A stretch of DNA of 64,000 bases from Vulcanimicrobiota bacterium (GTDB lineage Bacteria; Vulcanimicrobiota; Vulcanimicrobiia; Vulcanimicrobiales; Vulcanimicrobiaceae), in the NCBI GenBank assembly GCA_963714015.1, contig OY970223.1, positions 2,560,001-2,624,000 of the forward strand, written 5' to 3'. Every line of letters begins with the position of its first letter. Positions within the stretch are counted from its first letter, which is position 1. Position numbers and translations under genes: made by a program. The notes beneath the pieces are model-generated. The model made no database searches, was not told the DNA's origin, and worked only from the letters and a program-made list of their open reading frames with translations. Positions 659 through 20,286 of the stretch are shown piece after piece.

Positions 659-888
659 CGCTTCGCCAGTTCTTTTTGATCTATTTCACAAGCAACGTGG
701 CTTTCATGTTCATCGGATATGAAATAAGCAAAGCGTCCTCCGTTCCCTGGTTGGTTGTGGTGGCGTCCGTAGTCGTCGCCGCACTACTGGCACTGAACAG
801 CGCGCGAACTCTAGGCAACTCCTACGCGCGCGAGGACCGCGCAAATGCGGCTCTTCAGCACGTTGTGGAGAACCGCCGTCCCAGTTGA
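655..888 (+). CDS. Small membrane protein (77 aa, 2 hydrophobic segments)
   Basis: AGGAG at 644-648; ATG overlaps the upstream stop (ATGA); MTLRQFFLIYF...WLVVVASVVVAALLAL. Confidence 0.65.
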   Translation: MTLRQFFLIYFTSNVAFMFIGYEISKASSVPWLVVVASVVVAALLALNSARTLGNSYAREDRANAALQHVVENRRPS

Positions 889-1053
889 CGACGACGGCCT
901 GCGACTGTGGCCATTTCAGCAGAGGGATTACCCTTTCGCCCTCTAACTTGAGGAATATCGCACTGCACGTGTGGCCCTCCTAAAGGCGTAGCCACGTCGT
1001 GCTACTGATCGCCAAGTCCGCTAACACCTGACGGGGCGATTAAGGAGACGATT

Positions 1054-2909
1054 ATGACCAGGCAATACGAGCCGATGGTCCTTCATAACATTGGCTTTGC
1101 GTTGCGCCGTCTCGAACAAGACTGCGCGCCTCATCAAGAACTGCGCGAACTGGCGCAAAACGCAATTGACGCTCACCGCAACCAAAAACGAATCGACCCG
1201 CATCATAGGGGCGAGATAGTTGTAGACGTAGTTGGCCGCTCGTTCCCGAGTATGGCTTCAAGATGTGCTTCATCGATAACGCGACCGGCATGACGGGCGA
1301 CGACATCCAGAACTACATCAATCGGCTCTTCCGTTCAGGCAGTGAACAAGCCTTAGACAAGAATTACGGAATCGGTGCCAAGGTTGCCGCCGGCGTCAGA
1401 AATCCAGAAGGACTCACATACTTTTCCTGGGTCGATGGCAAGGGCGTCGTTGCGAACCTGAAATATTTTGCGGAAAACGCTGACTGGGGCCTGGAGCCTT
1501 TTGAACGCCCAGATGGTACCTACGGTGTATGGGCGCCCGTCGCGGATTCTGTAAAGCCGAAGCAAATCGACCGGCACGGCACGATGGTCGTTCTTCTTGG
1601 AAAATCTGCGGATCACAACACGATGCTGCCGCCGGAGAACGTTACAAGCAAGACGCGGTGGCTTTCAAAGTATTTCAACCTGCGCTATTTCCGCCTTCCC
1701 GATGGAGTGGAGATGCGGGTTCGCCTCTTCACATCTCCGGACCCCGATCAATGGCCAACTGTCGAGGTAAACTCCAATCCACTGGGTGCGCAGCTTAACA
1801 GAGTCACCGGACAAGAATACATATTGAACAAACTCGCGTCAGCGAAGGGAACGGTTCGGCTCTCCGGTTGCAAGGCGCACTGGTGGATAATGCCGGCAAG
1901 AGAAGACCGCAGAGACGTAGGTCATCAGCAGCATCACGTTGGTGGACATATCGCAGCGCTTTACCAAGACGAAATCTACGACATGCGAATCGGCAACGAC
2001 GGGTACAGCGAGTTGCAGCGTTTTGGCGTCCTATTCGCATACAAGCGCGTGATAATCTATCTAGAACCGGACCCAAGCACGGTGCTTCCCGACACGTCAC
2101 GTTCTCGACTTCTGATGGATGGTCAACGCCTACCGTATGTCACCTGGGCGCGAGAATTCTCTGAAAACATGCCCAAAGCTATCAAAGCCTTGGACGACGA
2201 GATCCTTGCGAAGGCGGAAAAAACACCACGAGCCGAGTCCATTGCTAAACGCCTTGAGCGCATTAAACACCTTCTTCAGCCGAGCCGCTATCGTCGGTCT
2301 ACTAAAGGCGCGATACCGGTTGACCCTGATGACTTGATTCTCGGTGGAATGCCGGAGAGCAAGAAGGATGGGAAAGTCACTCCTATCGGCAACGGGCGCT
2401 CGGGCGGCGTGGCTTCCAGTGGAAGACGTCTTGCTGCATTCATCTCACCAAATGATGAAGCGCAGCAGCGCGCTACTCCCGCAGTTGCTCCGCTCAATAT
2501 CCCGATGATCGAATGGGTAAGCGTTGCAGCAGGAACTCGAGAGCCGGGCTTTCAGGAAGACCGTGCAGCATGGTATCTTCCAGAGTCGCGCACAATATTC
2601 GTGAATCGAGACTTCCGCGGCTTTGCCGATATGCATCGCGACTTCTTGAAACGGCACGGTGCAGTTCCGAACGCGGCTATCAAGATCTGGCATGCAATAG
2701 AAGAGTGGGTCGGCCAGCAGCTGTGCGAGGTTGTCATAGGAATCGAGGGTTACGCCGGCTCGCAATATTGGCTGCCGGATAGCGTTAACGCAGCCTTGTG
2801 CCCCGAGGCCTTAACTGCGGCCGTGATGTCCCGCTGGTTCGTGTACGGACAGGTTTCCCGCGCACTTGGAAGTGTCTTGCGTACGCAGGACGCGGAACAG
2901 ACCGCGTAA
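1054..2909 (+). CDS. GHKL (Hsp90/MORC-like) ATPase domain protein; one frameshift near 1232
   Basis: AAGGAG RBS. Bergerat motifs are split over two ORFs: ELAQNAIDA (1054 frame), then DNATGM, NYGIGAK, GTMVV (1263 frame). Restoring one base joins them. Confidence 0.85.
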
Positions 2910-2970
2910 GCGCCGTCTGATCTGCGATGCACGCGCTCACTTCACGGCCGTTCTTCTGCAAGGTGGTACA

Positions 2971-5900
2971 ATGATCGACTTGCCGCTACCGCTACTCCAG
3001 GGCATTGAGAATGGATCCTGCGTGCTCTTTTTGGGAGCTGGCGTAGGATCACATTACGCCCGCACTGGGCAAACGATGCCGGACTCTGCATCGCTTGCAT
3101 TAGAGATAGTCAGCATTTTCAACTGGACACGCGCGGCAGCATAAATCTCGCCGAAGTTGCGGAGTTTGCTGAACTTCGCAAAGGGAGGGCTGCCCTAAAT
3201 GCGTTTGTTCGCGAGCGCCTCTCAAACTTCGCTCCGGACGAAATAGCCCAATGGCTTACCACCGTTCGTTGGCGAAGCATATTTACGACCAACTACGACG
3301 ACGGTATTCTCGCCGCGTATAGGAATAATCCACACCCGCCTCAATTAGCGGTTCCAATAACATCTACCGGTGGTATTCGATACTGCGACCGTCGCTTGGA
3401 AGTGCCAGTCTATTTTTTGCACGGGTTCATCGGCGCGGGTGATGAGTCGCGTCTGCTCATAACGGAGACTGACTACATCCGATTCAGGGACCGCCGCGAA
3501 ACTTTGTTTTCTCTGCTCAAGGAACAATTCGCGCAGTCGACGTTCCTTTACGTCGGCTACTCGAATCGCGACCAGAATTGGAAGACCCTCTTGGATGAGG
3601 TTCAGCGCGAATTCAGTCCTAAACCCACTCCACTATCATATCGTCTAACTATCGACGAGCCTTCGATGGCGGATGCACTGCTTGAAGCGCGAAATGTCTA
3701 CACGCTGCATTGCTCCCTCTCGGACTTTTGTATGGCTGCGCGCGCGCAGCTTCATGCTGTTGAAATGACGTCTTCGGCTTTGGAGAAGCTCGAGCGCGAT
3801 ATCCCGCCCGACTTTGCTGAAGACTTCACCGACAATCCAGTTGCCGTGGCTCGTTTCTTCAACTCCTGGCAGTATGTCAATCAGTGCGACTTTTCCCAGC
3901 CTTCAAATGCGCACGCTTTTCTTCGCGGCGACCGGCCAAACTGGGGTCTCATCGCTCAGAAACACTTCTTTCAACGCGATGTCGAGGACCCGCTCTATGA
4001 TGAGATGCTGGACTACGCAACGAGCGGCGCACTACGCGAAAGCTTAACCCTATTGGGTCACGCTGGCTCGGGCGTAACCACTGTACTCATGTCGCTGGCG
4101 GCAAGACTAGTCCGTGAAGGCGCGGGCCCCGTATATTTCCTAAGGCCTGGAGCACAAGTCCTCGAGGGGGATGTGCTATTCGTGGCCCAACGTGACCCTC
4201 ATGTAAAACCGTTCTTCTTTGTCGACAACGCCGCGATCGAAAAAGAGCGCCTTCGACGGCTTGTGCAGCGCGTTCAGAGTTCTCATGCGAACGGGATGCT
4301 CGTCCTCGGAGCACGTCTCAACGAGTGGAGAGAATCCACTGTCCGCCTAGCAACTAAAGAACGTCAACTTCTACAGCTTGGCCCTGACGAGATACCGCGA
4401 CTTTTGACGCTCCTGGAAAACAGCGGCGAACTTGGCGTTCTAGCCGATCTATCCCCCGAACTACGCGTGGTGAAGATTCAACAAAGTAACTCGAACGATT
4501 TGCTCGTGACGCTTCGCGAGGTTACCGAAGGACGCTCCTTTGACGCGATAATCGAGGACGAGTATCTCGGTATCCATTCCGAGCTTGGGCGCCGATTCTA
4601 TCTCATGGTCGCGTGCTTTTTTCAAAAGCACCTATTTGTTAGGGATACGCTGTTAGCGCGACTGCTCGATGTAGATACTGAAGAAATGTTCCGTGAGACG
4701 AACGCAGCCACCGAAGGCGTGGTGCTATACGAAACAGTCGATGAGGCAAACGGCGTGTTCGCCGCAAGGGCGCGGCACCGGGTCATTGCGCAAATAGTTT
4801 GGGAGCGTTGCGGATCGCGAACCGAACGCGAGGACCTTCTGCTACGCGCAATGTCCTTCCTTAACCTCGCTTACAAATGGGATCGCGATGCTTTCGATCT
4901 TTTCGTAAGGTCTGACGAGCTTGTCGATTTTTTCGGAACTCTCGAAAAGAAGACGCGATATTTCGATACTGCGATCAACAAAGACCCCGACAATCCTTAC
5001 GTGCGCCAGCACTATGCGCGAATGCTTTCCAGGGAAGGTCGTGACTTGCTTGCGCTCAGTCAAATCAACGAGGCCCTTTCCATAAACTCTAACCCGAGAG
5101 CGCTGCACCACACCAAAGGCCTGATCTTGGCGCAACTCGCTCTCGGCTCGCCTAGTCCGGATGTCGGTCGACGCTATCTTCTTCAAGCCGAGGATGCATT
5201 CAACACTTGCATTCAAAAGAGCCCTCGGGACGACTACGGTTATACTGGCCTCGCGCATCTGTACCTCGAATGGGCTAAGCGATGTGAGAACGTCGATGAC
5301 GCGACCGGCTACACCGCCCGAGCGGAGTCCCTGATCAGCGATGGACTGCGTCGCGCTAGCATCCACGAGTCTCTGTGGCTTGAATCAGCCCGCGTTGAGG
5401 CATACCTTGGTGATTCTGAAGCACGAATCCAAGCGCTTGAGAAGGCGCACGGGAGCTCGCCAAGCAGCCCGATCGCAGCGTTCTTGTTAGCACGCGCGTA
5501 TAGACGCGACGGCAGAGCTGCAGAGGCCGAACAACTCTTGCAGCCAATCATTCAAACCGCCGTTGAAGAGTTCCGCGTCTTTATAGAGTACGCGAAATGC
5601 TTGATCGCTCTAGGGAAGCCGTATAAAGAAGCTGCGGCAGTCCTCCGCTTGGCGTACCTTTCGGGCCTTTCTGATCCTCGCTATATTGCGACGCTCGGCG
5701 GCATGCTTTGTCTAGGCAAGGACTATACGGCAGCACTAGACGTCTTCAGCGAAAGCGCGAAGCGCGGCTTTTCATTGGGCGAACGCACGCGGATTTTCTA
5801 CCGACCGCGTATAGACGGTAGAGGTGACCGAATCCGCCTCACGGGACGGATCAGCAGCGTCAAAGGGAACTATGCATTTATCATAGCTGCGGATTTCGGA

Positions 5901-6110
5901 ACCGATGTTTTCTGCCCTCGCTCGCGTCTTGATGATGTGCTGACAACTGAGGGCACATTCGTCGAGTTCGATCTTGCTTTCAGTTCGCGAGGGCCTATCG
6001 CAGACAGCATAAGCCTCGCCCCAAAGGCGGCAGCAATGGCCACCGTGACTCCGCCTTCAGCCGGCGTTGACCAGCTACCTGATGAACATGTCGGCGGATG
6101 CGATTCTTAG
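2971..6110 (+). CDS. SIR2-like domain + STAND-like NTPase + TPR + C-terminal OB/cold-shock-like domain; one frameshift near 3110
   Basis: LFLGAGVG, then after the shift IFTTNYDD, YFLHG, YVGYS (SIR2-like); GHAGSGVTT and FFFVDNA (Walker A/B-like); helical repeats; GRISSVKGNYAFI..DVFCPRS..VEFDLAFSSRGPIA (CSD/OB-like). Confidence 0.88.
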
Positions 6111-7042
6111 GCATGTCCCACTATGGCTACCTTTTGCGATCGTTCTTGCGACTCAAGTCATTACACTATTCTTTCTTCACGAGCGAGAATCTCGGACGCT
6201 CCGCTGGTGGGCAAGAAATCTAGTCATACTACTTGGCATTACAAGCGCAGCGGTTGCGTACTTGTTCCAGGTTCGTTCCCAAGAGATTGCGCAGTTAGTC
6301 CGGGCTCAAGTGAACCTTACAGATGCGTCAATGGCGAAACAGGCAACTCACCTCCGCAATCTGCAGGAACAGCTTTCTCAGGATAAGCCGCACATCGCTA
6401 GAACTGAGCAGCTCGCGAAGACATTAACCATTGCGTTGACGCAGGCACAAGAGAAACTCGCCTCGCAGCAACAACGTGTCACGGCGCTGATTGTCTCAAC
6501 ACGACAGACTGAGGAATGAATCCTCGATCGCGTTCTCGCACTCGGTAGCCGCTCTCAACGTTTCGCGGCGAGTTCAGAGTACAACGCAAAGGATTTCCAG
6601 AGAAGCTAACGAGCAACTTTCCCTCGCCGAACAAATGTCGCGCGAGGCGGCAGCCAAGGCGGGGATCTACAGATTTTCGCCGCTGCTCCTTTCCCGTATG
6701 ACAGCGATACTTTCGCATGCGGGTGTCGGCAAGGCGGCTGTTTCATGTGCTCCCGGCCTTGAGTCGCCATGCGATGATTTAGTGTCGGCGTTCTTAGCGG
6801 CGCGCTGGACAACATCCGTTCTACACGCGGCCTCCTTCTGGGGCGGCCTTGACGTTGTGCCAGCTGGGGTGATGACGGAGGCAGGGCTTGTTGTTCTTTA
6901 TGGACCTCGCTCTGAACGTACTGCAGACGAGTTGATCAACGTGCTGCGAGCCACCGGACTAAGGCTCGAAGCAGAGCCCGATTCAAGCGCCTACGACGTT
7001 TCAATAGTTCTGCGCCACGTTGAGGGAGCGCTGTCGCAGTAA
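6088..7042 (+). CDS. Membrane protein: 2 TM helices, coiled coil, C-terminal alpha/beta domain; probable frameshift near 6500
   Basis: ORFs 6067-6519 and 6491-7042 overlap with continuous Q/E/A-rich helical sequence; start overlaps the end of the SIR2-STAND gene. Confidence 0.6.
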
Positions 7043-7090
7043 ACCTTACACCGAATCCATATCCTCGATGAGGTCATGCGACAACGAGCC

Positions 7091-7128
7091 GAATATGTAC
7101 TGGTCGGAATATGTACCCCTACCAGTAA
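7091..7128 (+). repeat. Dispersed ~39-bp element, copy 1
   Basis: GAATATGTACTGGTCGGAATATGTACCCCT-ACCAGTAA; 36/39 identical to copy 2 by manual alignment. Confidence 0.9.
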
Positions 7129-7309
7129 ATGATACGCTTCGGCGGCGTGGCGAATCGTGGCGCCAGAATACGCCGGGTTTTGAATACCCGGAGGCAGTAC
7201 CCGTTATATCGAGCGACGGCGACGAGGCGGCGCCCTCTTACTTCTTTTTCCGCCAATATATGTACGGCTGAAGGTGTAACGCCGGACAGTTCAGGAACGT
7301 AGATTTCGT

Positions 7310-8692
7310 ATGCTGCAATTGATTCTTGCTGCCGCGCTTACGGAGCCCACCCAGCACAATTATTCCACCGCCATGAAGAGCGGGAAGATTCCCGGAATGC
7401 AGGTTGTAGTCGTCGACCACGGTAAGGTCATCCTCGACGATGCGCTGGGTGTCAAAAACGTCCTCACTCAAGCGCCGGTCGACGTACACACGCGTTTCGA
7501 GATCGGTTCGATCACCAAACAGTTCACCGCGGCCGCTATCCTGCAATTGCGCGAGCGCGGAAAACTTTCACTAGACGATGTACTTAGCAAGTACGTTCCG
7601 CAATACGTGCGTGGCCGGAAGATTACGTTGCGGCAAATGCTTCTACAGATCAGCGGCATTCCGGATTATAGCGAGACTAGCACCTTCAACAGCCTGGGCG
7701 CCTACCGGAACGGCCGAATTGTAATTACGAAGCGTGGTGACCTCGCGGCGGTCGTTGAGATCATCCAAGGCAAGAAACTCGACTTCACACCAGGTACGAA
7801 GTGGGAATACAGCAACACGAATTACTATATGCTCGGCTATATCGTGCAGCGTGTTTCAGGAATGCCATGGAGCGCATATATTCGGCAGCATATCTTCGCG
7901 CGTGCGAATATGAGCGAGAGCTCATTCATGCAGGACGAACCGGGCATGGCTGACTTGGCAACCGGTTACACCCGGTACAAAAATAGAATCGATCCGACTG
8001 GCAATTATGCTGGATGGGCCGGCGGAGCTGGCGCGATCGTTTCAACCGCCGCAGATCTAGCGAAATGGGACGCAGCACTATTTAACGGCAAGATCATCAG
8101 CGCGGTGGATTTAAAATTGATGACCTCGCCAGGACCGTTACCGGCGCTTGACGGAAACGCGCGGTATGGCTTCGGCTGGGTGATCGACAGCTACGACGGA
8201 CAGGCGCGCTTGTGGCATAACGGTGGCACGATCGGCTTCAGCGCGAGCAACGAAGTCTATCCGAAGCAGTCACAAGCGATTGTCGTACTGAGCAATCGGG
8301 AGAGCGGCACCGACTCAATCGCGCAGAAGACGTTTGACACGCTGCATCCAGAGTTCGTGGCGACGCAAAACAAAGCCGCGGCGGGCGAAGACCGCGCGGT
8401 CACCGCGCGTATCAAGATCACGTATTCCTCGCTCATGTCGGGGCATCTCGACCGAGCCCAGTTCACCAAAGAGGCCCAAAAGGGCATCACGCCTGATGCT
8501 GTGGCGCCATTGAAGCAGCTTGTCGCGCCTATGGGGCGAGCAGAAACATGGGTCTATCGCGGCAGTCAGGAGAAAAACGGCGCAACGACTTACACGTATC
8601 GCGTGACGTTTAGCAGCGGCATGATGCTGAACGTATACATGACGTTGGACAAAAACAACAAGATTGCTGCGTATTGGGTATCGCCGACCTGA
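7310..8692 (+). CDS. Serine hydrolase, beta-lactamase/AmpC-like family
   Basis: SxxK (GSITKQF), YSN and HNGG motifs. Confidence 0.92.
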   Translation: MLQLILAAALTEPTQHNYSTAMKSGKIPGMQVVVVDHGKVILDDALGVKNVLTQAPVDVHTRFEIGSITKQFTAAAILQLRERGKLSLDDVLSKYVPQYVRGRKITLRQMLLQISGIPDYSETSTFNSLGAYRNGRIVITKRGDLAAVVEIIQGKKLDFTPGTKWEYSNTNYYMLGYIVQRVSGMPWSAYIRQHIFARANMSESSFMQDEPGMADLATGYTRYKNRIDPTGNYAGWAGGAGAIVSTAADLAKWDAALFNGKIISAVDLKLMTSPGPLPALDGNARYGFGWVIDSYDGQARLWHNGGTIGFSASNEVYPKQSQAIVVLSNRESGTDSIAQKTFDTLHPEFVATQNKAAAGEDRAVTARIKITYSSLMSGHLDRAQFTKEAQKGITPDAVAPLKQLVAPMGRAETWVYRGSQEKNGATTYTYRVTFSSGMMLNVYMTLDKNNKIAAYWVSPT

Positions 8693-8819
8693 GGATAAAC
8701 AGCACTTCACGAAATGTTGGGCGGTGGCCGTTATGCCGTTGCCATCAAACGACGACAATGCTTGTGTGGGTGTCGGTCCAAAGCGCGCGGCGTAAGCATC
8801 GCTAAACTGATACGGAGCG

Positions 8820-9971
8820 TCACGCGAGTTCCGGCGGTGGATGCGAATGGCGTAACAAGGAATCGAGAAGCGCCAGGACATCCGGGAATCGCTCCCTTAC
8901 GGCGCGGTCGTTGCCGCCGGCCGGTACCTGGAACTCGCGCACGTTGAATCCGGTGAACACCACCGACGACCCTCGAAGCGGATCGCCGTTCTCCATGTAA
9001 TGGTACGGAAAGTTCGTGAAGAATACGATGGCACCGGGTAGGCCGCTCGTCTGCGGGTTCTGCTCCAGGCGTTTGACCTGCGAGCCGAGCCTATCGAACC
9101 ATCCGGACTCGAGAATGTGCGCCTCGCTCGGCGGGACGTTGATATCGATGAAGACGAGTCGCTCATGCAATGCATTCTTGCGCAACGCTGCCACGAGCAG
9201 ACTCGTTATGTCGGCCTCGATCTCCACAAGCCGCCCGGGCGTCCCCGGATACCCAAGGAATCCCGCACGATGGCGACTCTTGGCCTCGACAGAATACTGC
9301 TTGCCCGTCTTCATGTAGGTCGCGGTGAATTCGCAATGCGTTGATGACCGATTGCTTTCATCTTCGAGACCGATGGAAAAGCCGGCGCGGACGAGCGCGG
9401 CCGCAACGAATGCTTCGTATCGAGCACCCTGAAACTGATCCTTCCGCTGCAAGCGGTCTACCAGGCGCTGAAGCAGCAGCGAATGATGCTCAAGCGTGTA
9501 GATATCGTACGCAAACGCTAGCAGTGCCGATATCTGCGCTGGTGGATTGTCGATTTTATTGATATCGCCGAGCGCGACATCGGAGCGGTGCGCCGCCCAG
9601 AAATCGAACCAGACCTGATACCACTGCATGAGCGGATGCCGATCCTCGAGTGGCAGCGACTGTTCGTTCTTGAACCAGTCTTTCGCGAATACGGCTCCGA
9701 TATACGAAAATAGGAAGTCGTGGAACGTCTTCCATTTGTGGTACAACAGGCGCGACCCGACCGCGACGAACGTCTGGCCCGCGTGGCCCATCCAGATCGG
9801 CGGCTTGACGTAACCGTATTTTTCGATGCGCTCGGCCTCTTGGCGCTGCGCTTCAGCGAGTTTCAACCGGACACTTTCGGGCATCGTCAACCGGCGTGCT
9901 TTTTCCAAACAGCAGCGCTTATGCTTCTTCCCGCTGCCGCACGGGCAAGGACTATTTCTACCAATCTTCAT
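8820..9971 (-). CDS. SEC-C motif protein with possible restriction-endonuclease-like C-terminal domain
   Basis: KIGRNSPCPCGSGKKHKRCC; later YE..VAA...CEF...VEAK. Confidence 0.75.
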   Translation of the reverse strand: MKIGRNSPCPCGSGKKHKRCCLEKARRLTMPESVRLKLAEAQRQEAERIEKYGYVKPPIWMGHAGQTFVAVGSRLLYHKWKTFHDFLFSYIGAVFAKDWFKNEQSLPLEDRHPLMQWYQVWFDFWAAHRSDVALGDINKIDNPPAQISALLAFAYDIYTLEHHSLLLQRLVDRLQRKDQFQGARYEAFVAAALVRAGFSIGLEDESNRSSTHCEFTATYMKTGKQYSVEAKSRHRAGFLGYPGTPGRLVEIEADITSLLVAALRKNALHERLVFIDINVPPSEAHILESGWFDRLGSQVKRLEQNPQTSGLPGAIVFFTNFPYHYMENGDPLRGSSVVFTGFNVREFQVPAGGNDRAVRERFPDVLALLDSLLRHSHPPPELA

Positions 9972-10172
9972 CTTGACCAAGGCCCGGCCCGCGAGATAGG
10001 GCAGCCTCGACCATTATATGGCCTACACGCTGGGCATGGTCCGCCGCTTTCCACTGGCCTGCGCAGGCCCAGCGCTCAAGGGATTCTAAGGCCTCAGGTA
10101 CACCCACTCTCCACGTAGGAATTCGGGACGATCGAATAGGCCCGCATAAACTCCAACGTGAAACTCCGCTGC

Positions 10173-10573
10173 CTAACCAGCAGCAACGCCGAAGCATACA
10201 GTCAGCAGCACCTGTGGCGCGCCGACGATAAGCACTCTCTTGCGCGCGTTCAGGATGCCAATGAGCGTCGCCAACCCTATAGCCGACCAGATGCCGGGCC
10301 ACCACGTCCAATGCAAGTCGATCAAGGCTGGTATCTGAAGGTAGACTGCGATACTGCAGTTCGGCTGTCCCAAGAAATGTCCCAGACGCTATGGATACCG
10401 CAACCGATAAGGAGACTTAAGAACTTCGTCAGGTCAAGCTGCGATGGTTCAACCCATCGTTTGACGAGAGTGGAATTGGGATTGCGCCATGCAGCGATGC
10501 CGAGCAGCATCGCTAAAACGCCAGCTGGCAAAGCCCCCGCTGCCCAAAGCAATAAGCCGACGCTGCAGACCAC
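10173..10573 (-). pseudogene. Fragmented or frameshifted hydrophobic membrane protein
   Basis: Two overlapping hydrophobic ORFs (10322-10573, 10173-10373); an upstream GGAG-ATG at 10642 opens only a short frame. Confidence 0.35.
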
Positions 10574-10658
10574 CCCGGATCATTATAGAGGCGCAGTCGC
10601 GACCCTTGCTGTTTCTTCGCGCCTTGCGATTGCGGCCTTCATAGTCTCCGATTTGGGG

Positions 10659-10697
10659 GAATACGTACCGGTCGGAATATGTACCCCTTACCAGTAA
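10659..10697 (+). repeat. Dispersed ~39-bp element, copy 2
   Basis: GAATACGTACCGGTCGGAATATGTACCCCTTACCAGTAA. Confidence 0.9.
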
Positions 10698-10769
10698 TAG
10701 CTAGATAGTTAGAATGCGTGAGGCACGCATTATAGGACTTACGCATATTCCGCACTCCCTAGAACCAAC

Positions 10770-10800
10770 GAAAAGCCGACGAACTACGCGTCGGCTTTTC
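10770..10800. terminator. Hairpin resembling a bidirectional intrinsic terminator
   Basis: GAAAAGCCGACG-aactacg-CGTCGGCTTTTC, perfect 12-bp stem. Confidence 0.65.
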
Positions 10801-10959
10801 GCATTCGGGACAGCGCTTTCGGATATTTGATTGCGTGAGTCAAGGGCACGCTAGGCCTATCCTTGACCTGGGTGGATGCCGCTGCTCCTAATGCTGGTCG
10901 TTCAACCGGCCGATACGACCCAGAGTCATATTCGGCACTTATTTGTAATGGAGCACACA

Positions 10960-12003
10960 TTGCGCAAACACGTTTTTGGATTGGCCCTTGCGGGGGCGTC
11001 GGCTATGCTGGTGGCCTGCGGCGGCGGATCCACGCCGTCCGCGATCCCCACGGCATCTCCCGCCCCGAAGCAAACGGCTTCTCCAAGCCCTAAGCCGACC
11101 GCTTCGCCGACGCCGACTCCGACGACCGGCCCGAATTCGCAGATGATCTTCGTGGCGGATCGCACCACCAACGCGATCCTCGGATTCGCCGCGAACGCGT
11201 CCGGCAACGCCGCTCCGACCATCGACATCACGAGCTCCGCGTCGGGCTTCGGTCCAGCACTATCGCTCGCGATGAGCGCAAACGGCACGATGTACGAAGC
11301 CGGCGACAGCACCGATTACATCAACGTATTCAATTGGGGCGACAACGGCAACATCTCGCCGGATTCATGGGTGCAGAACAGCAACCCCGTGACGAGCGAG
11401 GGAGTCGCGGTCGATTCGAGTGGAAACATGTACGAATCTTCGTACTCTTTCCCATGCGAAATCGACGAGTACGCCGCCGGCAGCAGCGGCACGATGGCTC
11501 CCACGAACGTTCTCTCGGGAGCGAATACGCAACTGACTTTCCCGACGGACATGGCGTTCGACTCGAGGAATCGACTGTACGTCGGCCAGGGGGGCAGCTC
11601 CATCCTGATCTTCGCGGCGGGCGCGACGGGCAACGTCGCACCGGTTGCGACCATTGCCGGTTCGAACACGACGTTGACGTCGGTAACGGCGATGTCGTTC
11701 GACGCCGCTGGCCGCCTGCTCGTGGCGGATGCCTCGGGCAAGATCCTGGTGTTCGCGGCCGGGGCTACGGGCAACGCAACTCCGGTGCAGACGATCTCGG
11801 GATCGAACACCGGTCTCTCGGCTCCGAGCGGCGTCGCGGAAGACGCCCAGGGCGGAATCTGGGTTTCCGACAACGGTTCCTCGCCGAACACGACGGGACT
11901 GTATCGGTTCTCTAAGAACGCGAACGGCAACGTCGCGCCGATCAGCACGATCAAAGGCGCGGCGACGCTGCTTGTCGACCCGTTCTACGTGCAATTGCAC
12001 TAA
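10960..12003 (+). CDS. NHL-repeat/beta-propeller lipoprotein
   Basis: GGAG then TTG; lipobox LVAC-GGG; P/T-rich linker; repeats of FAAGATGNVAP..TISGSNT.L..P. Confidence 0.85.
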   Translation: MRKHVFGLALAGASAMLVACGGGSTPSAIPTASPAPKQTASPSPKPTASPTPTPTTGPNSQMIFVADRTTNAILGFAANASGNAAPTIDITSSASGFGPALSLAMSANGTMYEAGDSTDYINVFNWGDNGNISPDSWVQNSNPVTSEGVAVDSSGNMYESSYSFPCEIDEYAAGSSGTMAPTNVLSGANTQLTFPTDMAFDSRNRLYVGQGGSSILIFAAGATGNVAPVATIAGSNTTLTSVTAMSFDAAGRLLVADASGKILVFAAGATGNATPVQTISGSNTGLSAPSGVAEDAQGGIWVSDNGSSPNTTGLYRFSKNANGNVAPISTIKGAATLLVDPFYVQLH

Positions 12004-12020
12004 GGCGCGACGGTGTAGAA

Positions 12021-12060
12021 GCGAAACGGCCCGGGTTTTCGGACTCGGGCCGTTTTCGTT
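12021..12060 (+). terminator. Intrinsic terminator
   Basis: GAAACGGCCCGGGTT-TTCG-GACTCGGGCCGTTTTC just after the stop at 12003. Confidence 0.8.
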
Positions 12061-12434
12061 CGTTCGCTGGAATCTGCGCAGGGCTCGCCGCGCGGCGGCG
12101 GTATCGGAAGGGAAACCAATGAACCGTAGATGCCAGGAAAAACAAACGCCTATCGCGGCCGTCAGTATTATACGCTGACGTATAAGAGTATCGCCGGTCA
12201 ACCGTTGCCGGCCGGAATCCGAACCCGGATATGAAGTCCTTTTCCCGTGACGCACGCGCGGAACCCGTTCGAAGCCGGGCGCTCCGAACACAAACGGCAT
12301 TACGGCTAGACTCTTTCCGATGACGCCGGCCTACAGAAGCTCGACCACCAAAAACCATAACAGGACTTAGATGAGCCCTTCGAGTCAAAACCGGACTTAC
12401 GTTCAAAATGTCACCAGGGCCTAGTTGAAATGCT

Positions 12435-12473
12435 GAGTATGTACCGGTTGGAATATGTACCGGTTACGGGTAA
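12435..12473 (+). repeat. Dispersed ~39-bp element, copy 3
   Basis: GAGTATGTACCGGTTGGAATATGTACCGGTTACGGGTAA; 32/39 to copy 2; both continue with WAGCTAGA. Confidence 0.85.
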
Positions 12474-12554
12474 AAGCTAGAACCTTCCGGGTAATCCACT
12501 TAAGAGGGCGACGGCGTGAAGGCGCGGCCGCTCTCTTCCCATTTCTTGGTCGGT

Positions 12555-13073
12555 CTACAAACGAAACAGCATCGCAAGGCCAGATGAGAGAACCTTCATC
12601 ATAAACGCCGGTGAATAGCCTTTGTACGAAGGGATGTCGTCCGCGAATACCTTGCCATTCTGCAGAAAGCTGGTGCAGATACGCATCTGTATCGCCGGCG
12701 CATTAGGCCCGAGTCGCTCGCGGTAGATTGGGACCCAATGCCGCGCGTCATCGAAGCGCATCAAGACCGCCGAATTGCAGCAGCAGGCGACGACCCGATT
12801 TGTCTTGGGATTATGCTCGACCTTATAGTCTTTGAGGAGTTCGGAGCCCTTGACGTAGGTCACACGATCCTTCCGGTAAAGGACATATTCCGTGCCGCCG
12901 TCTGCCCGTCGCACGGAAGGCGCATTCGGCAACGCTTCGATGCGGCTCGAACCTTCCTGGCACGTGTCGCAGTAACAAGCGAAACTACCGATCGGCACGC
13001 CCTTAAGCACCAAAGCGACGGACCCGCAAGAACACTCAGCAAATACCGTGTTGTCGGCGGCTTGAAGCGTCAT
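12555..13073 (-). CDS. GFA/Mss4-like zinc-binding protein
   Basis: CSCGSV, CYCDTCQ, CCCNS cysteine pattern. Confidence 0.8.
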   Translation of the reverse strand: MTLQAADNTVFAECSCGSVALVLKGVPIGSFACYCDTCQEGSSRIEALPNAPSVRRADGGTEYVLYRKDRVTYVKGSELLKDYKVEHNPKTNRVVACCCNSAVLMRFDDARHWVPIYRERLGPNAPAIQMRICTSFLQNGKVFADDIPSYKGYSPAFMMKVLSSGLAMLFRL

Positions 13074-13099
13074 GGGTGTTCGTGTGCCGTGAGGGAGAA

Positions 13100-13138
13100 A
13101 TTATCCCTCTTTGCGTCCAAGTGTCAACCACCTGACAC
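13100..13138 (-). promoter_or_regulatory. Candidate sigma70 promoter with an overlapping palindrome
   Basis: Minus strand TTGACA-16 nt-GATAAT; inverted repeat GTGTCA-N6-TGACAC at 13121-13138 overlaps the -35. Confidence 0.5.
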
Positions 13139-13140
13139 AT

Positions 13141-13179
13141 GAATACGCCCACGTTGGAATAGGTGCACCTTACCAGTAA
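13141..13179 (+). repeat. Dispersed ~39-bp element, copy 4
   Basis: GAATACGCCCACGTTGGAATAGGTGCACCTTACCAGTAA; 31/39 to copy 2. Confidence 0.8.
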
Positions 13180-13478
13180 AGCCCCGGATTTTCATCAGAT
13201 GTTACAATTCACCGTCTGATGATCGTGCTCAGAAACGCGTGATTGAAGGGGTTGTCGGCAATACACCGTCAGCCTCTTCTTCTTTTGCCGCCTGCATTTG
13301 AAAGGGCACGTAATGCCGGCCGAACTTTTAACCGCCACGCCGCGCCGCCACGTGCATTCACCGAAACTGACTTATGTCAGCCATCCCCGACATTACGCGT
13401 CATCTTCTTGCGGTCGTGCTCCAAATGCCGGCGCGGAACGTTTTTACCAACGCGAACTGAATTAACTTCGATGGGCCG

Positions 13479-13952
13479 TCAAAGTGGCGCCATGCAGCAC
13501 ATTGAACTAATGCTGCCACCGGCCCAATCGTACCGAACGTAAACACAAGAACCCGCGCGTTCCCCGTGATGAGCGGAAAATATGCTTTGCCAATCTCCAC
13601 CGTAGCCGCCCTCAACTTGTCCCACGCTAATGGGCGCACTCAGGAGAATCCCTACCGACCGCCCACGAACCCATTCGACCCTAAGGGGCGCTGGAAGGAC
13701 GGGGAACGCCAACAACGCCGAACCGGATCGAACGTTGCTGATATGAGTTCGTTTCAGCGCAAACAAAAGTTCCTTAGCTTCCGTGTCCTGAAGTTGTTTG
13801 GAATCGAAAAGAGGCAATAATACTTCACACGGGGCGAGAGTGACATAGGCAAGAGCAGCACATATAACTACGAGAGCAACCGTCCCCGCTACGATAACAG
13901 GGCGCAAGTTCACCAAACGTTCCGAACTTTCGTTTCTATAAACATGACTCAA
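13479..13952 (-). CDS. Hypothetical membrane-anchored protein
   Basis: 157-aa ORF with one N-terminal hydrophobic helix; no recognised motif. Confidence 0.45.
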   Translation of the reverse strand: MSHVYRNESSERLVNLRPVIVAGTVALVVICAALAYVTLAPCEVLLPLFDSKQLQDTEAKELLFALKRTHISNVRSGSALLAFPVLPAPLRVEWVRGRSVGILLSAPISVGQVEGGYGGDWQSIFSAHHGERAGSCVYVRYDWAGGSISSMCCMAPL

Positions 13953-14022
13953 ATAGAACTACCATCTTCAAATTCCAAAGCGTTTAGACCGGCAACAGGT
14001 CCATCAATGAACGTGTGAGCTG

Positions 14023-14276
14023 AGCTCATTTACGTATCCGATGATTCCGCGCGGACGATTGATCGGCGCGCTTTGCTGGGGCCGAAGCACTCGCAAGAGT
14101 CTTACGCGCCCGACGAGTCCGATGCAATAGAGGATCTGGCGGACCATGTGGCCGGCGTGCTCGATGTATTGGGCCGCCCGGCTTCAGGCGACGGCGCCGT
14201 TTTAACCGAATTGAAATCATGCACCGCGCGTTGGCTGATCTTTTCATCGCTCCGATCCGAAATCAAACGCAGTTAG
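14023..14276 (+). pseudogene. 3' remnant of a GAF-like domain protein
   Basis: YPMIPRGRLIGAL / LGPKHSQESYAPDESDAIEDLADHVAGVLDVL, a GAF-terminal pattern with no start or N-terminal part. Confidence 0.5.
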
Positions 14277-14295
14277 ACTGAGCGGCTTTTGGTGA

Positions 14296-14345
14296 GAATT
14301 CGCGGCGAGCATAGGGATGCCGCACCTGTAAAGGCCCCGGAATTT
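14296..14345 (+). repeat. Possible degenerate copy 5 of the dispersed element
   Basis: GAATTCGC..ATAGG..ACCTGTAAAGGCCCCGGAATTTT versus copy 4 plus flank ACCAGTAAAGCCCCGGATTTT. Confidence 0.45.
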
Positions 14346-14392
14346 TTAAACGGTAGGCGAATGCGGGGCCTTGTTCTTGCATCACGGTTGGC

Positions 14393-14845
14393 TTACAAGC
14401 AGTTAAGGTTCGGGACGGACATTGCATCTGACGAACTCTTGTGCGGGTCGAAACTATATGACATGAAGCGCAGCTTGACTAGCGGCCGCTCAGAAGTGTA
14501 GGCCTCATCCGAGTGACCCGCGACCAGAACACCACGCAAAGTGATGTCCCATCCGCTGCCGGAATTGTCAACAATCATCGCTTTCAAAATCCGCTTGCGC
14601 TGCGACGCCAACCTTTGAAACGTTCTCAAATCTACACGCTTGGTTAAGCCAATAAACAACACGGTCGGAGAATCGCCTTTTCCCCAAAAATTCATCTTGT
14701 TCCCGGTCACGGTGAATAGGTCGACAGCTCCGGTTTCCTTGGAGCAAAATACGGCGCCGGCGACCGGGGCCGGAAAACTCGCGACACAAACGAGGGTCGA
14801 CACGATGATGAGCAGTGATAAAATGCTTTGTCGCAACGAAATCAC
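14393..14845 (-). CDS. Hypothetical secreted protein
   Basis: Signal-peptide-like N-terminus; GGAG upstream. Confidence 0.55.
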   Translation of the reverse strand: MISLRQSILSLLIIVSTLVCVASFPAPVAGAVFCSKETGAVDLFTVTGNKMNFWGKGDSPTVLFIGLTKRVDLRTFQRLASQRKRILKAMIVDNSGSGWDITLRGVLVAGHSDEAYTSERPLVKLRFMSYSFDPHKSSSDAMSVPNLNCL

Positions 14846-15443
14846 CCGTCTCCAACCGTCGGCTAACTCCCGAACAAATACGAACGTCGGCTTCTTACCC
14901 TAACCCAACATGGCACCCTCCTTTCCAGGGACGCTCGGATTATGCCCTACGGTGGCGCGGCGTGATTCAAGTACAAAAACTATGATACGCCGTTGTTCCG
15001 ACGCAATTGAAAAGGCCATCGTCCATAAGCAATGACGATAGTGAGGAGCCCGATTGCGTTCTTGTCTGCAAAGTGACGGTACAACGCCATGGGGGTCAGT
15101 TGGCCGTCTTTCGTGGGCTCGCGCATCAAGCGCGACGGTATCGCAACGTTCAAACCACCGCTTCGCAGCGCGAAGGATCCGCTGCTTCGTGCTCAGCCTG
15201 GGGATTAGTATACGGCGTATACATGGGCCTGAATTTGCAAGGCCCTCACCCCAGGCGCCGGCATGTCGTTTGCGGCGCCGACATTTGGGTCCGGGCAAGA
15301 AGAAATCGATCAGGGGTAAAATACGAGAAAAGGCAACATTGTAATGCGGCCAACGACCGGTCACGATGCGGCGTCCGAAATCGGGCCGCTCGACGGCTTT
15401 CAACTAATTTCAGGGGAGTAGTGATATCAGTAGACGCAAATCG

Positions 15444-15815
15444 ATGTTCTTCGCAATCCTATGCTGTGCTCAGTTTCCAGGGTGCAATCAGTCAACGCCT
15501 AATGCGGCTGGATTTATTCCGCTGGCGGCTCCGGTTCTTTCATGGACAGCCCCGTGGGTGCAAGGACCGCAAACCGGAACCATCGCATTCCAGTCGATCG
15601 GCCAGAACGTGACACTGTCGGCGAGCGCCGCTCAGCCCGGCGGTTCAATGCCGCCTTACACATTCACACCCGGAAACTGCGTGACGATGTCCAACCAGTC
15701 AACCAGTGGTAATACGCAAAATGTCACGCTTACCGCCGCCAGCGGGGGGTCCTGCAGTGTGTCGGTTAAGGGCACTCTCAGCTCGTCAACCTCCATACAG
15801 GTGACGGTACCCTGA
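15444..15815 (+). CDS. Hypothetical small exported beta-rich protein, possibly a lipoprotein
   Basis: Hydrophobic start and PGC; S/T-rich beta-strand pattern similar to the 30614 ORF. Confidence 0.6.
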   Translation: MFFAILCCAQFPGCNQSTPNAAGFIPLAAPVLSWTAPWVQGPQTGTIAFQSIGQNVTLSASAAQPGGSMPPYTFTPGNCVTMSNQSTSGNTQNVTLTAASGGSCSVSVKGTLSSSTSIQVTVP

Positions 15816-16003
15816 TAGACATGAAAGATGATGTCGCCGGAAATGCCGCAAAACGTTTGCGGGAAGCAATCTGCTCGCGGACCGGCGCGGGCCTCAGCTC
15901 GCGCTTAATCAGCGGCTCGGCTTGCCAAGCGCCCCGGCTCAAAAAGGAAAGTCTGCGCACAGCCAGGGCGGACGGCACGCGGCAATCAGCGAACGGGCGG
16001 GAC

Positions 16004-18811
16004 ATGACCGTGCCGCTGGAACCGGCAGCCTCAGCGTCCGGCTTTCTGCCGTCCGGGACGGTCACTTTTCTGTTTTCAGACATTGAAGGGAGCACGCAGC
16101 GCTGGGAGCGGGACCGCGAAGCAATGCGAGACGCGCTGCAACGGCACGACGCTCTGCTGCGTGCGAGGATCGAAGCGCACGGCGGCCGAGTCTTTAAAAC
16201 TGTCGGTGATGCGTTTTGCGCCGTGTTCGCGCGCGCGGAAGACGCGATCGCCGGGGCGCTGGAGGTGCAACGCGCGCTAGCGGCAGCGGACTTCTCGGCG
16301 GCCGGCGGCGTGCGCGTGCGCATGGCGCTGCACACCGGCACCGCCGACGAACGCGATGGTGATTACTTCGGCCGCACCGTCAACCGCATCGCTCGACTAT
16401 TGGCGATCGGCCACGGCGGACAGGTCCTTATTTCCGGCGCAACAGCCGAACTCGCGCGGGGCGACATGCCGACCGAAGCGACACTCCATGACCTCGGCGC
16501 GCATCGACTCAAAGATCTCGCGCGGCCGGAACGAGTCTACCAACTCGTCGCGCCCGATCTGCTGCGCGACTTCCCGCCGCTGCGCTCGCTTGACGTTCTC
16601 CCCAACAATCTGCCGCCGCAACTGACCTCCTTCGTCGGGCGCGCAACCGAGGTTGCCGAGATCGGCGCGCTGATCGCACCGCGGCGCGTCGTTACGATCG
16701 TCGGATCGGGCGGCGTCGGAAAGACGCGCACATCGCTGGAGGTCGGCGCGAACCTGCTTGACGGCTCCAACGACGGCGTCTGGTTCGTTGAGCTCGCGCC
16801 TATCGCCGATCCGGCCCTCGTGCCGATCACGATCGCGGGTGCGCTGGGCCTGATCTTACCGGCCGAAGGCGACCCGCTCGACGCACTCGTAAAGTTGCTG
16901 CGGCCGAAGCACTGCCTGTTAATCCTCGACAACTGCGAGCACCTCGTCGAGGCCGCCGCCGCCGCCGCGTCGGCGATCGTGCGCGGTTGCCCCGGCGTGG
17001 CGATCCTGGCTTCGAGTCGTCAGCGCCTTGGCATCGAAGGTGAGCGGACGTACCGAATGCCGTCGCTCGCGCTTCCAAGCGAAGCCGAGGCCGAGCGACT
17101 GACGGCAGCCGGCGCGAGCGCTTACGGCGCAATTGCACTGTTTATCGAACGCGCCGGCATGGCCGACAAGCACTTCTTATTGAGCGACGAGTCCGCACCG
17201 ATCGTCGCCGACATCTGCCGCCGGCTCGACGGAGTTGCGCTCGCGATCGAGCTGGCCGCTGCGCGCGTCGCGATCCTGCGTCCGCGCGAGTTGCGGACGC
17301 GGCTCGATCAGCGTTTCCGCGTGCTGACCGGCGGCCGGCGCGACGCGCTTCCGCGTCAGCAAACGCTCCATGCACTCATCGACTGGAGCTTCGATTTGCT
17401 CGACGAACGCGAACGCCGGCTTTTCCGCCGCCTCGGCATCTTCGTCAATGGCTTTACACTCGAAGCCGCCGCCGTCACGGCGGTGGACGACGTCGGCGAT
17501 GAAACCGGGAGCGACGAGCGCCTAGACGAATTCACCGTCTTCGACGTGCTCGCGTCACTCGTCGACAAGTCGCTCGTCGTCGCTGAACCTGAAGGTGAGA
17601 CGACGCGCTACCGGCTGCTGGAATCGATGCGCGCCTACGCGCGGGAGAAGCTTGACGCCGCCTGCGAGCGGGAACGCCTCGCCGAATGCCATCTGCGTTA
17701 CTTGCGCGACGTGTTCGTGCGCGTGGGCGAAGCATTCGAGCAGATGCCTCGCGATAATGACGTTCTGGCGCTGGCGGTCGAACTCGACGATGCGCGCGCG
17801 GCGCTCGAGTGGGCGGCGCAGAGCGGTCGGGCTACACTTGGCGGTGAGCTCTACGTTGCGACCCTGTTATGGGACCGGCTCGGCCTCCAACGGGAAGCCT
17901 TCGCGATCGCCGAGCGGTACGTGCCACTGCTCGAGCGCGCCGATACTGCTTTGCGCAGTCGCGCCTTTACCCAGTTGTCGTACGCGGCCTTGGCCCTCCT
18001 CCGACTGGCGGAGACGGAGGCTGCGAGCGAACGAGCCGTCTCGCTCGCACGCGAATCGGGCGATCCGCTGACCTTGTCATGGGCGCTCATTCAGCGATCG
18101 AACATCTCCATATGGCACGATCGCTACGCAGAGGCGAGTGCCGAGTTATCGGAAGCGGAAACCGTCGCTCCACTGACGGCGCGCATGCGATTGATGATGG
18201 TCATACAGCAATCCTGGCTGGCCAGGTTGAAAGGAGATTTCGCCGAAGCCGCGCGTTTGCTGGAACGCTACCGTGCGATGGATCGGGCGTTCGGAAACGC
18301 GTCGACCGCCACGCTGCTGCAGTTGGCGGAGCTCGAGCACCAACGCGGCAACACGGAAGACGCCATTGCGCACATTCGTGAGGCGCTAGTCTCCGCCGCT
18401 CCGGGCAAACTCGATCGTCTGTTGCCGTACCTGTACGGAAACTTGCCGGCCTATTTGTTGGCGATCGATGACCTGAGCGGTGCGTGTATAGCGGGACGCA
18501 ATGCGCTCAACTTGCTCCGTAAGACCGATCCCGACGGTATCATTGCGGCGATTGTGATCGAACACGTATCGCTCGCCGCCGCCCTGGCCGGCGATCTCCA
18601 CGCCGCCGCCCGCCTCGAGGGCTATGCCGATGCAAACTTCCGCGCCGCCGGCTATGCCCGCGACTTCACGGAAAGGACCTCGTACGACCGACTACGCGCC
18701 CTGCTGCGCGAACGGCTTACCACTTCCACCCTCGAAGAACTCCTCGCCGAAGGGGCCGGATGGGACGCCGACACCGCTATCACCCAAGCGCTCGAAGCAA
18801 TTGCCGCCTGA
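16004..18811 (+). CDS. Class III adenylate/guanylate cyclase + STAND ATPase + TPR protein
   Basis: FSDIEGST, FKTVGDAF, DYFGRTVNRIARL; GSGGVGKT; LILDNCEH; LDGVALAIELAAAR. Confidence 0.93.
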   Translation: MTVPLEPAASASGFLPSGTVTFLFSDIEGSTQRWERDREAMRDALQRHDALLRARIEAHGGRVFKTVGDAFCAVFARAEDAIAGALEVQRALAAADFSAAGGVRVRMALHTGTADERDGDYFGRTVNRIARLLAIGHGGQVLISGATAELARGDMPTEATLHDLGAHRLKDLARPERVYQLVAPDLLRDFPPLRSLDVLPNNLPPQLTSFVGRATEVAEIGALIAPRRVVTIVGSGGVGKTRTSLEVGANLLDGSNDGVWFVELAPIADPALVPITIAGALGLILPAEGDPLDALVKLLRPKHCLLILDNCEHLVEAAAAAASAIVRGCPGVAILASSRQRLGIEGERTYRMPSLALPSEAEAERLTAAGASAYGAIALFIERAGMADKHFLLSDESAPIVADICRRLDGVALAIELAAARVAILRPRELRTRLDQRFRVLTGGRRDALPRQQTLHALIDWSFDLLDERERRLFRRLGIFVNGFTLEAAAVTAVDDVGDETGSDERLDEFTVFDVLASLVDKSLVVAEPEGETTRYRLLESMRAYAREKLDAACERERLAECHLRYLRDVFVRVGEAFEQMPRDNDVLALAVELDDARAALEWAAQSGRATLGGELYVATLLWDRLGLQREAFAIAERYVPLLERADTALRSRAFTQLSYAALALLRLAETEAASERAVSLARESGDPLTLSWALIQRSNISIWHDRYAEASAELSEAETVAPLTARMRLMMVIQQSWLARLKGDFAEAARLLERYRAMDRAFGNASTATLLQLAELEHQRGNTEDAIAHIREALVSAAPGKLDRLLPYLYGNLPAYLLAIDDLSGACIAGRNALNLLRKTDPDGIIAAIVIEHVSLAAALAGDLHAAARLEGYADANFRAAGYARDFTERTSYDRLRALLRERLTTSTLEELLAEGAGWDADTAITQALEAIAA

Positions 18812-18851
18812 ATTCGACGCGGTCGCTGCCCGACGCCGGCCGGTAGGACGA

Positions 18852-20223: not shown

Positions 20224-20286
20224 GCTAGCGTCGGGAACCGTATATGTGTTGAAAGTCGACTTTGGGGTCTATCAGAGGGGAGATAA

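Follow-up and report, generated by a model that had tools for sequence, protein, structure and literature searches.

Why does a short DNA element recur four times, always in the same orientation, between unrelated genes of one bacterial island? The question was raised by a stretch of 64,000 nucleotides (hereafter the window, G000:C1:2560001-2624000) from a Vulcanimicrobiota genome, G000, that consists of a single contig of 3,562,638 bp. A sequence-only reading of the window had described a ~39-bp element dividing the island into cargo modules and had proposed that its copies were attachment sites left by repeated integration at one locus, of a kind other than attC. Judged from sequence comparison with related genomes and metagenomes, the elements are probably the distal-end recombination sites of units serially inserted behind the stop codon of nrdJ, which encodes the class II ribonucleotide reductase, with a Xer-like tyrosine recombinase as the likely enzyme.

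A repeated element confined to one locus

Four copies, spaced 3568, 1776 and 706 bp apart, were found again on rereading the sequence, exactly where the sequence-only reading had placed them. Two degenerate sequences were added to them:

7091 to 7128, plus strand: element copy 1, 38 bp with one T absent (CCCC-TACC), profile E 4.4e-9; distal end of the integrase-bearing unit
7166 to 7202, plus strand: possible degenerate copy 37 nt past copy 1, a weak match (nhmmer E 0.46)
10659 to 10697, plus strand: element copy 2, profile E 9.8e-11
12391 to 12429, plus strand: degenerate copy ending ...CCTAGTTGAA, 5 nt ahead of copy 3, seen in the alignment with genome G086
12435 to 12473, plus strand: element copy 3; with the preceding 5 nt it makes up a 44-bp 'empty' unit
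13141 to 13179, plus strand: element copy 4, of the subtype carrying GGTGCACC

The element is a real, non-random and locus-specific feature. With up to 3 mismatches, the full consensus matched copy 2 only in the window, and none of 100 shuffled windows contained a match. The half-site GGAATATGTACC, with up to 2 mismatches, was found 7 times against 1.68 expected, a count reached by 0 of 100 shuffles, and six of these seven matches were the paired half-sites of copies 1-3. When a profile of the four copies was run over the whole 3,562,638-bp genome, exactly these four were retrieved (E 1e-10 to 1e-8), on one strand and at one locus, the next match having an E-value of 3.9. A genome-wide scatter of copies in both orientations, raised beforehand as a finding that would refute the attachment-site reading, was not observed, and with only four profile matches the element is neither a repetitive extragenic palindromic (REP) sequence, nor a miniature inverted-repeat transposable element (MITE), nor a regulon motif.

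Among 61 distinct copies gathered from many genomes, the element was about 41 bp long and displayed three conserved boxes, GAATA-N7-GTTGGAATA-N6-CCTTACCAGTAAA. Information was high at positions 1-5 (GAATA), 13-21 (GTTGGAATA) and 28-40 (CCTTACCAGTAAA), low in the blocks 7-12 and 22-27, and nearly nil at -2 and +41. The apparent conservation of the boxes is inflated, since many of the copies came from a search with a pattern that fixed them; copies found by profile showed the same boxes. The longer direct repeat GAATATGTAC is confined to one subtype of the element.

Hairpin formation, as in attC sites, was ruled out. The DNA folding energies of 26 copies (39-mers) averaged -2.2 kcal/mol for the top strand and -2.8 for the bottom strand, close to those of shuffled sequences (mean z -0.06 and -0.66), and remained so when flanks were included (z = -0.3 and -0.6). 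A dif or terminus site was also rejected, the locus lying ~160 kb from the maximum of cumulative GC skew (2.408 Mb). The idea of a NrdR box was dropped on the grounds that the elements lie downstream of nrdJ and inside arrays.

Insertion behind nrdJ and exchange between genera

The genes that anchor the locus were located by Pfam in the 20 kb preceding the window (coordinates on L001):

L001:13127-16765: NrdJ, class II ribonucleotide reductase
L001:16945-17586 and 17499-18053: tyrosine recombinase in split open reading frames (ORFs), ~180 bp past nrdJ and 2-3 kb upstream of the window start
overlapping the integrase ORFs: gene of a small Cro/C1-type helix-turn-helix (HTH) protein

The nrdJ stop codon is situated ~3.2 kb upstream of the window. 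The sequence-only reading had referred to a neighboring recombinase gene; the integrase and the nrdJ target both lie outside the window, and no recombinase domain was found by Pfam among the 15 window ORFs scanned (20 to 18811).

The position of the element behind nrdJ was conserved among relatives. A sequence-only covariance model built from seven copies and applied to 151 genomes of the family detected the element in 20 of them, spread over 16 of 78 genera. Two genomes flagged as unpublished, G010 and G030, support none of the claims made here. Each genome harbored 1 to 7 copies, always clustered on one contig and on one strand. In all of the 15 genomes in which the relation to nrdJ could be assessed (G000, G001, G013, G086, G087, G092, G094, G096, G097, G104, G115, G136, G140, G142 and G149), the elements shared the orientation of nrdJ and lay 0.6-38 kb downstream of it; in the other five element-bearing genomes (G002, G014, G045, G129 and G145), a contig end prevents the comparison. 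The scan of relatives that had been proposed as a check returned the same place and the same orientation wherever a comparison was possible.

The element appeared to be restricted to this lineage. In a phylum-wide sample it was present in 7 of 71 genomes from the family of G000 (G000 excluded) and in none of 79 genomes from 20 other families. A search of about 185,000 species genomes with the exact IUPAC pattern gave 16 stretches in 14 records, all of them titled Eremiobacterota, Vulcanimicrobiota or WPS-2 (one Baltobacteraceae), and another 35 stretches were obtained from metagenome contigs. Six metagenome loci displayed nrdJ 0.5-1.5 kb upstream and co-oriented, and none displayed the reverse arrangement. 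Metagenome matches fell within 130 nt of a contig end more often on the downstream side (8/35) than on the upstream side (2/35), which suggests that assemblies branch just behind the element, as expected of population heterogeneity there. In viral contigs, a shortened pattern gave 3 matches, all to one unrelated AT-rich sequence (nhmmer E 0.097), and these were taken as chance.

The junctions were compared by BLAST: for 35 genome copies, 250 nt on either side were searched against the first 250 nt downstream of the nrdJ stop in 24 genomes. Eleven high-scoring segment pairs (HSPs) were obtained, all from right flanks and involving 9 of the 35 elements, while left flanks gave no match. Five HSPs began exactly at the first base past the element and at the first base past the stop codon, namely copy 4 of G000 paired with G086, and the last elements of G086 and of G104, each paired with both G096 and G001; the other HSPs began 6-50 nt in. 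Homology of a right flank from the junction base implies that the DNA now to the right of the element stood immediately behind nrdJ, be it in a different genome or in the past, and hence that the whole stretch from the nrdJ stop to the 3' end of the element is an insertion. An example with a single unit, of ~17 kb, was found in G087, where nrdJ is followed by the integrase and finally by one element, the right flank of which resembled the nrdJ flank of G096 (90.8% over 618 bp, from 19 nt past the element).

Traces of earlier insertion were also found in G000, where copy 4 is directly followed by what was once the left end of an older integrase-type unit, now devoid of its integrase (13180-13286). 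The 12-mer ATGTTACAATTC has just two occurrences in the genome, one 25 nt past the nrdJ stop and the other 19 nt past copy 4, and ~80-110 nt around both sites are homologous. Comparison by blastn and tblastx of the region after copy 1 with the region from the nrdJ end to copy 1 yielded matches at the level of the element only. In metagenome contig L122, an element was joined directly to the left end of an integrase unit and the integrase start codon; read from the sequence, this junction may be attP-like, as in a circle, or a tandem copy.

Delimited in this way, the array in the window comprises the following units:

1 to 7090, plus strand: right-hand part of the integrase-bearing unit, which starts outside the window right after the nrdJ stop (G000:C1:~2556768)
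3396 to 6110: SIR2 / STAND NTPase / TPR protein, cargo of the integrase-bearing unit (Pfam)
7129 to 10658, no strand assigned: module 2, with a Beta-lactamase-fold serine hydrolase (7310-8692, plus) and a SEC-C motif protein (8820-9980, minus)
10698 to 12390, no strand assigned: module 3, with an NHL-repeat lipoprotein (10876-12003, plus)
12474 to 13140, no strand assigned: module 4, with a GFA-family protein (12555-13073, minus)
13180 to 13286, plus strand: relic, the left end of the older integrase-type unit, homologous to the DNA after the nrdJ stop of G086 (82.6% over 109 nt) and of G000

Pfam agreed with the gene identities first proposed for these intervals (serine hydrolase, SEC-C, NHL and GFA), and the tandem, divergent and convergent gene contexts of the copies, all with one element orientation, had been correctly described.

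Modules were common to different genera at 93-99% identity, far above the 71-80% shown by nrdJ. One case was a segment of 753 bp that begins 7 nt ahead of copy 3, takes in the GFA gene and closes with copy 4, and that was 98.7% identical between G000 and G086, a member of another genus, against a background of 77.6% for nrdJ and ~66% for the integrase region. The alignment of the two genomes turns identical at ...AA^ATGCT and becomes random again after CCAGTAA^ (the caret marking the boundary). In G086, an intact extra element ends 5 nt before the counterpart of copy 3, at the place where G000 has the degenerate one (12391-12429); given this extra element 5 nt ahead, ATGCT and copy 3 together form the 44-bp empty unit. 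Likewise, a unit composed of YCII and RibD_C genes and an element was 93-96% identical among G094, G096 and G001, which belong to three genera and share 71-80% in nrdJ; in two pairs its homology ran to within 1 nt of where the element ends, and in the third it stopped 18 nt short. Breakpoints at the element, proposed as a check of the attachment-site interpretation, were thus found within 1 nt of its 3' end both in the G000/G086 pair and in two pairs for the YCII-RibD_C unit.

Gene content between copies was expected to vary among strains, and it differed completely even within a genus. G000 and G001 had nothing but elements in common between nrdJ and the conserved abhydrolase/YCII genes, an interval that measures ~26 kb in the former and 9.8 kb in the latter. 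Cargo encoded in both orientations included SIR2-STAND, type III restriction-modification, an E1-like/DUF6527 pair, multicopper oxidase and SDR, along with glyoxalase, TetR, aldo-keto reductase and a Vgb-lyase-like protein. Together with the unique locus, the conserved position in relatives and the breakpoints at the element, this variation bears out the proposal of attachment sites from repeated integration at one locus, distinct from attC.

Several further arrangements were observed at or near the locus. Pairs of elements 5-86 nt or 578 nt apart that enclose no gene occurred as empty units in several genomes (L087:1001-1125; L095:1000-1616; G086, L061:~11690-11777). In G015 (L027:~156-195), a half element, ATATGTACGCCTTACC, begins directly at the nrdJ stop, and in G018 (L023) a half element is found ~200 nt downstream of nrdJ, with the first 6 nt past the stop seemingly duplicated (AGTTAA AAGTTAAAA); both arrangements may be traces left by excision or deletion. 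The alignment of G000 NrdJ by tblastn was broken by insertions of ~1-1.3 kb in G087 (L078:3062-10294), G096, G097, G115, G136, G140 and G149, which recur near residues 204-207, 484, 685-687 and 883-892 in a pattern like that of inteins, and of which the nrdJ of G000 has none.

No tRNA gene was found in the window. The tRNA-Ser(gga) gene 9.5 kb upstream of it was rejected as a target, because core genes (shikimate dehydrogenase-like and nrdJ) separate it from the island. Behind this gene, its last 34 nt recur twice, the second time imperfectly (G000:C1:2550375-2550740, L001:10375-10740), each partial copy being preceded by the same ~90-nt spacer, so that a 159-bp stretch is duplicated in tandem; the partial copies may be remnants of old att sites, though core genes follow. 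Past the last element of the window, an adenylate/guanylate cyclase-AAA protein of 996 aa is encoded in the interval 15821-22440, as are two more Beta-lactamase-fold genes (18624-20033 and 20287-21654), which with that of module 2 (7310-8692) make three paralog-like serine hydrolases in 15 kb.

Candidate integrase, insertion model and rival explanations

The integrase is, from its sequence, a generic Xer-like tyrosine recombinase and not an IntI. The intact homologue of G086 matched the NCBIfam models of XerD (95.8 bits) and XerC (94.7 bits) best, far below their own cut-offs, and scored lower with the integron models TIGR02249 (60.7 bits for a cut-off of 265) and PRK15417 (37.8 bits for a cut-off of 435). 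Homologues at E <= 1e-20 were present in 7 of the 151 family genomes. Five were close (48-100% identity; G000, G086, G087, G104 and G139, the last at a contig edge), and in the four of these located on long contigs (G000, G086, G087 and G104) the order was always nrdJ, ~200 bp, integrase, HTH gene, cargo and element(s). The two distant homologues occurred in G046 and G056, genomes in which the element profile had no match; in G046, neither nrdJ nor the element was found within the 20 kb fetched around the integrase. The motif GTTAC/GTAAC, which resembles the TTAC of box 3, was over-represented in the interval from the nrdJ stop to the start of the integrase gene in 4 of 5 units, with 3-5 copies where 0.3 would be expected.

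The model that we propose is as follows. A unit would insert site-specifically right behind the nrdJ stop, its left end coming to lie against the stop codon so that nrdJ stays intact, and its element-bearing right end landing against whatever previously followed nrdJ. With each further round the units would stack up, every former junction being marked by one co-oriented element. Insertion is likely catalyzed by the Xer-like tyrosine recombinase, whose gene lies, with that of the Cro/C1-type HTH protein, in the nrdJ-proximal part of the largest units; smaller units without an integrase (44 bp to 8 kb) would be moved in cis or in trans, by accretion or by cassette-like mobilization. Circular intermediates are predicted, in which attP would consist of the element and the left end of the unit, and the integrase would exchange strands near GTAA^A with an attB of the form ...TG(Y)AG(Y)TA(A/G)^A at the nrdJ stop. 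Box 3 (TTAC-CA-GTAA) may then be the crossover site and the GAATA repeats accessory binding sites; the direct repeats may correspond to the arm-type integrase sites with which the sequence-only reading had compared them. For G086, with an attB assumed from empty sites of the G096/G001 type, the scheme would be attB TCGTAGA^ATGCG, attP CCAGTAA^AGCCCC, attL TCGTAGA^AGCCCC and attR CCAGTAA^ATGCG. Units, one or several at a time, would be released whenever two of the junctions recombine with each other.

Several observations weigh against this model. The link between integrase and element is positional only, and a close integrase homologue was not found in 16 of the 20 element-bearing genomes. In G000 itself, the integrase matched the 368-aa protein of G086 in three frames, that is with two frameshifts, and is either broken or mis-assembled. 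The nrdJ 3' end of G000 (L001:16735-16768) likewise carries a 1-nt insertion or frameshift and reads ...CDRLRSHIGV before the stop, where relatives read ...CDSCGATSGCS; indel errors in the assembly are a possible cause of both, G000 being 89.6% 'complete'. The nrdJ end, as attB, and the element share only ~AGT(T)AAA, the 3' end of nrdJ (...TGC GGN GCN ACN AGC GGN TGY AGY TAA) being otherwise unalignable, which is unusually little identity for a classical tyrosine integrase. In G087, the right-flank homology begins 19-26 nt after the element rather than at the junction, and the enrichment in GTTAC is lacking. Finally, neither an excised circle nor an empty-site variant was seen, the sole public run holding part of the stretch consisting of short low-depth contigs without joints. 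This soil run contained 0.13 of the sampled words, in five contigs, 164-313 nt in length, that showed full identity to the NHL and GFA modules, and two further runs of the same study gave partial matches of 33-43 nt only.

The rival that survives best dispenses with a site-specific system, the element acting as a homology anchor between which RecA-dependent homologous recombination swaps modules, from nrdJ or another element to an element. At 39-41 bp and often >85% alike, the elements are near the lower limit for homologous exchange, and the 16 genomes without a close integrase would be readily accounted for. We nevertheless regard this explanation as improbable, because the junctions bring together the element end and the nrdJ stop, non-homologous sequences that homologous recombination cannot join, and the nrdJ-proximal flank is homologous from the very next base. 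Moreover, identity falls from ~99% to random at the outer edge of the element and not within it.

Operators or other regulatory sites, serving the HTH regulator of the island or nrd regulation, were favored by the intergenic position of all copies and by their direct repeats and small palindrome. Their orientation remains constant whatever that of the neighboring genes, they coincide with homology breakpoints, tandem copies 5-86 nt apart have no gene between them, and they lie downstream of nrdJ and not upstream, all of which makes a regulatory role rather implausible.

Tn7 inserts in one orientation downstream of glmS, and fixed-orientation insertion just past the stop of a conserved gene, at an end with repeated GAATA motifs, would suit a Tn7-like target-specific transposon whose internal direct repeats bind the transposase. 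This was judged slightly less credible still, since the scanned ORFs of units in G000, G086, G149 and others contained no transposase domain while a tyrosine integrase was present, the left ends examined had no inverted copy of the element, and the junctions showed no target-site duplication.

The remaining idea, considered in the sequence-only reading as an alternative, of remnant 3' ends of a protein gene (EYxxVGIxxPYQ-stop) displaced by integrations is hardly credible, for although a stop stands in frame in most copies and some changes look synonymous, no gene of G000 ends with the element peptide, the open frames upstream of 35 copies are mutually unrelated (1-173 codons), in-frame stops interrupt 3 of those 35 copies, 9 of 61 distinct copies have TAT or TAC in place of the final stop, the variable positions form two blocks without three-base periodicity, and the true end of nrdJ is unrelated to the element. 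A likeness noticed between the nrdJ end of G000 (RLRSHIGV-stop) and the element peptide (EYAHVGI...), which would make the element a diverged nrdJ 3' end, was discarded, that end being a 1-nt frameshift artefact or variant.

Comparison with known systems

Eremiobacterota (WPS-2) are abundant in soils and peat and are almost entirely uncultured. A full-text literature search returned no description of mobile elements in Eremiobacterota or Baltobacteraceae, nor of nrdJ as an attachment site or integration hotspot. Defense genes (SIR2-STAND and type III restriction-modification) and small metabolic genes are seen here moving between genera of this family via the nrdJ locus, which offers a precise insertion point, a compact site motif and a candidate integrase, testable together in a heterologous host.

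Integrons combine a fixed capture point with small, often single-gene cassettes and co-oriented sites, and recombine two dissimilar sites by means of an adjacent integrase. The nrdJ locus resembles them as an array of units that each end in a co-oriented site, next to a fixed capture point. It differs from them in that the integrase is not IntI and resides on an inserted unit instead of a fixed platform, the site does not form a hairpin, and cassette genes are found in both orientations. A bolder reading is that this is an independently evolved integron-like capture platform of one Eremiobacterota family, in which cassettes without an integrase, 44 bp to 8 kb long and each terminated by a 41-bp site that forms no hairpin, are captured singly at the stop codon of the essential nrdJ by a Xer-like enzyme acting on dissimilar sites (as with attI x attC) and are shuffled between genera as free units. 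We hold this reading as tentative and rather doubtful; if integrase-less single-gene units were indeed captured individually, it would amount to a second, mechanistically different solution to the problem solved by integrons, and might also yield a site-specific integration tool for a phylum without genetics.

Elements that depend on Xer and dif also come to mind. A dif site, located at the replication terminus, has 28 bp with two 11-bp inverted arms, and the elements that use it bring no integrase of their own. Compared with integrative mobile elements exploiting Xer (IMEX), the nrdJ element has direct repeats and no two 11-bp inverted arms, and the units bring their own integrase. Accretion among streptococcal integrative and conjugative, integrative and mobilizable, and cis-mobilizable elements (ICE, IME and CIME) is similar in that units share att sites and integrase-less ones are mobilized in cis; those units usually measure tens of kb and carry conjugation or mobilization modules, whereas no relaxase or conjugation gene was seen in the ORFs scanned of units at the nrdJ locus.

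Tandem arrays are closer. In the Dehalococcoides ssrA islands, multiple islands stand in tandem behind one single-copy gene, with the integration module by attL, beside the target, integrase-less units are read as cis-mobilizable, and an island-borne motif that cannot be aligned with the target stands beside each repeat (PMC3146451). Tandem accretion next to one gene, with the integrase at the target-side end, is shared with the nrdJ locus. In Dehalococcoides, the repeat is a 20-bp copy of the target 3' end and the enzyme is the serine recombinase DsiB (PMC3146451), whereas here the repeat is island-borne, with only ~AGT(T)AAA in common with the nrdJ end, a Xer-like tyrosine recombinase would be the enzyme, and the smallest units amount to 44 bp or to one gene. 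The tycheposons of Prochlorococcus use tyrosine recombinases and reuse one site, newcomers pushing older elements inward while remnants and cargo accumulate; their targets are tRNA genes and their repeats partial tRNAs, in contrast with the stop codon of a protein gene and a repeat that is no copy of the target (bioRxiv 10.1101/2020.12.28.424599). By analogy, the closest known systems are these tandem accretion arrays, the Dehalococcoides ssrA islands and the tycheposons, and what is new at the nrdJ locus is the target at the nrdJ stop, the island-borne repeat that does not derive from it, a different site family and the very small size that units can have.

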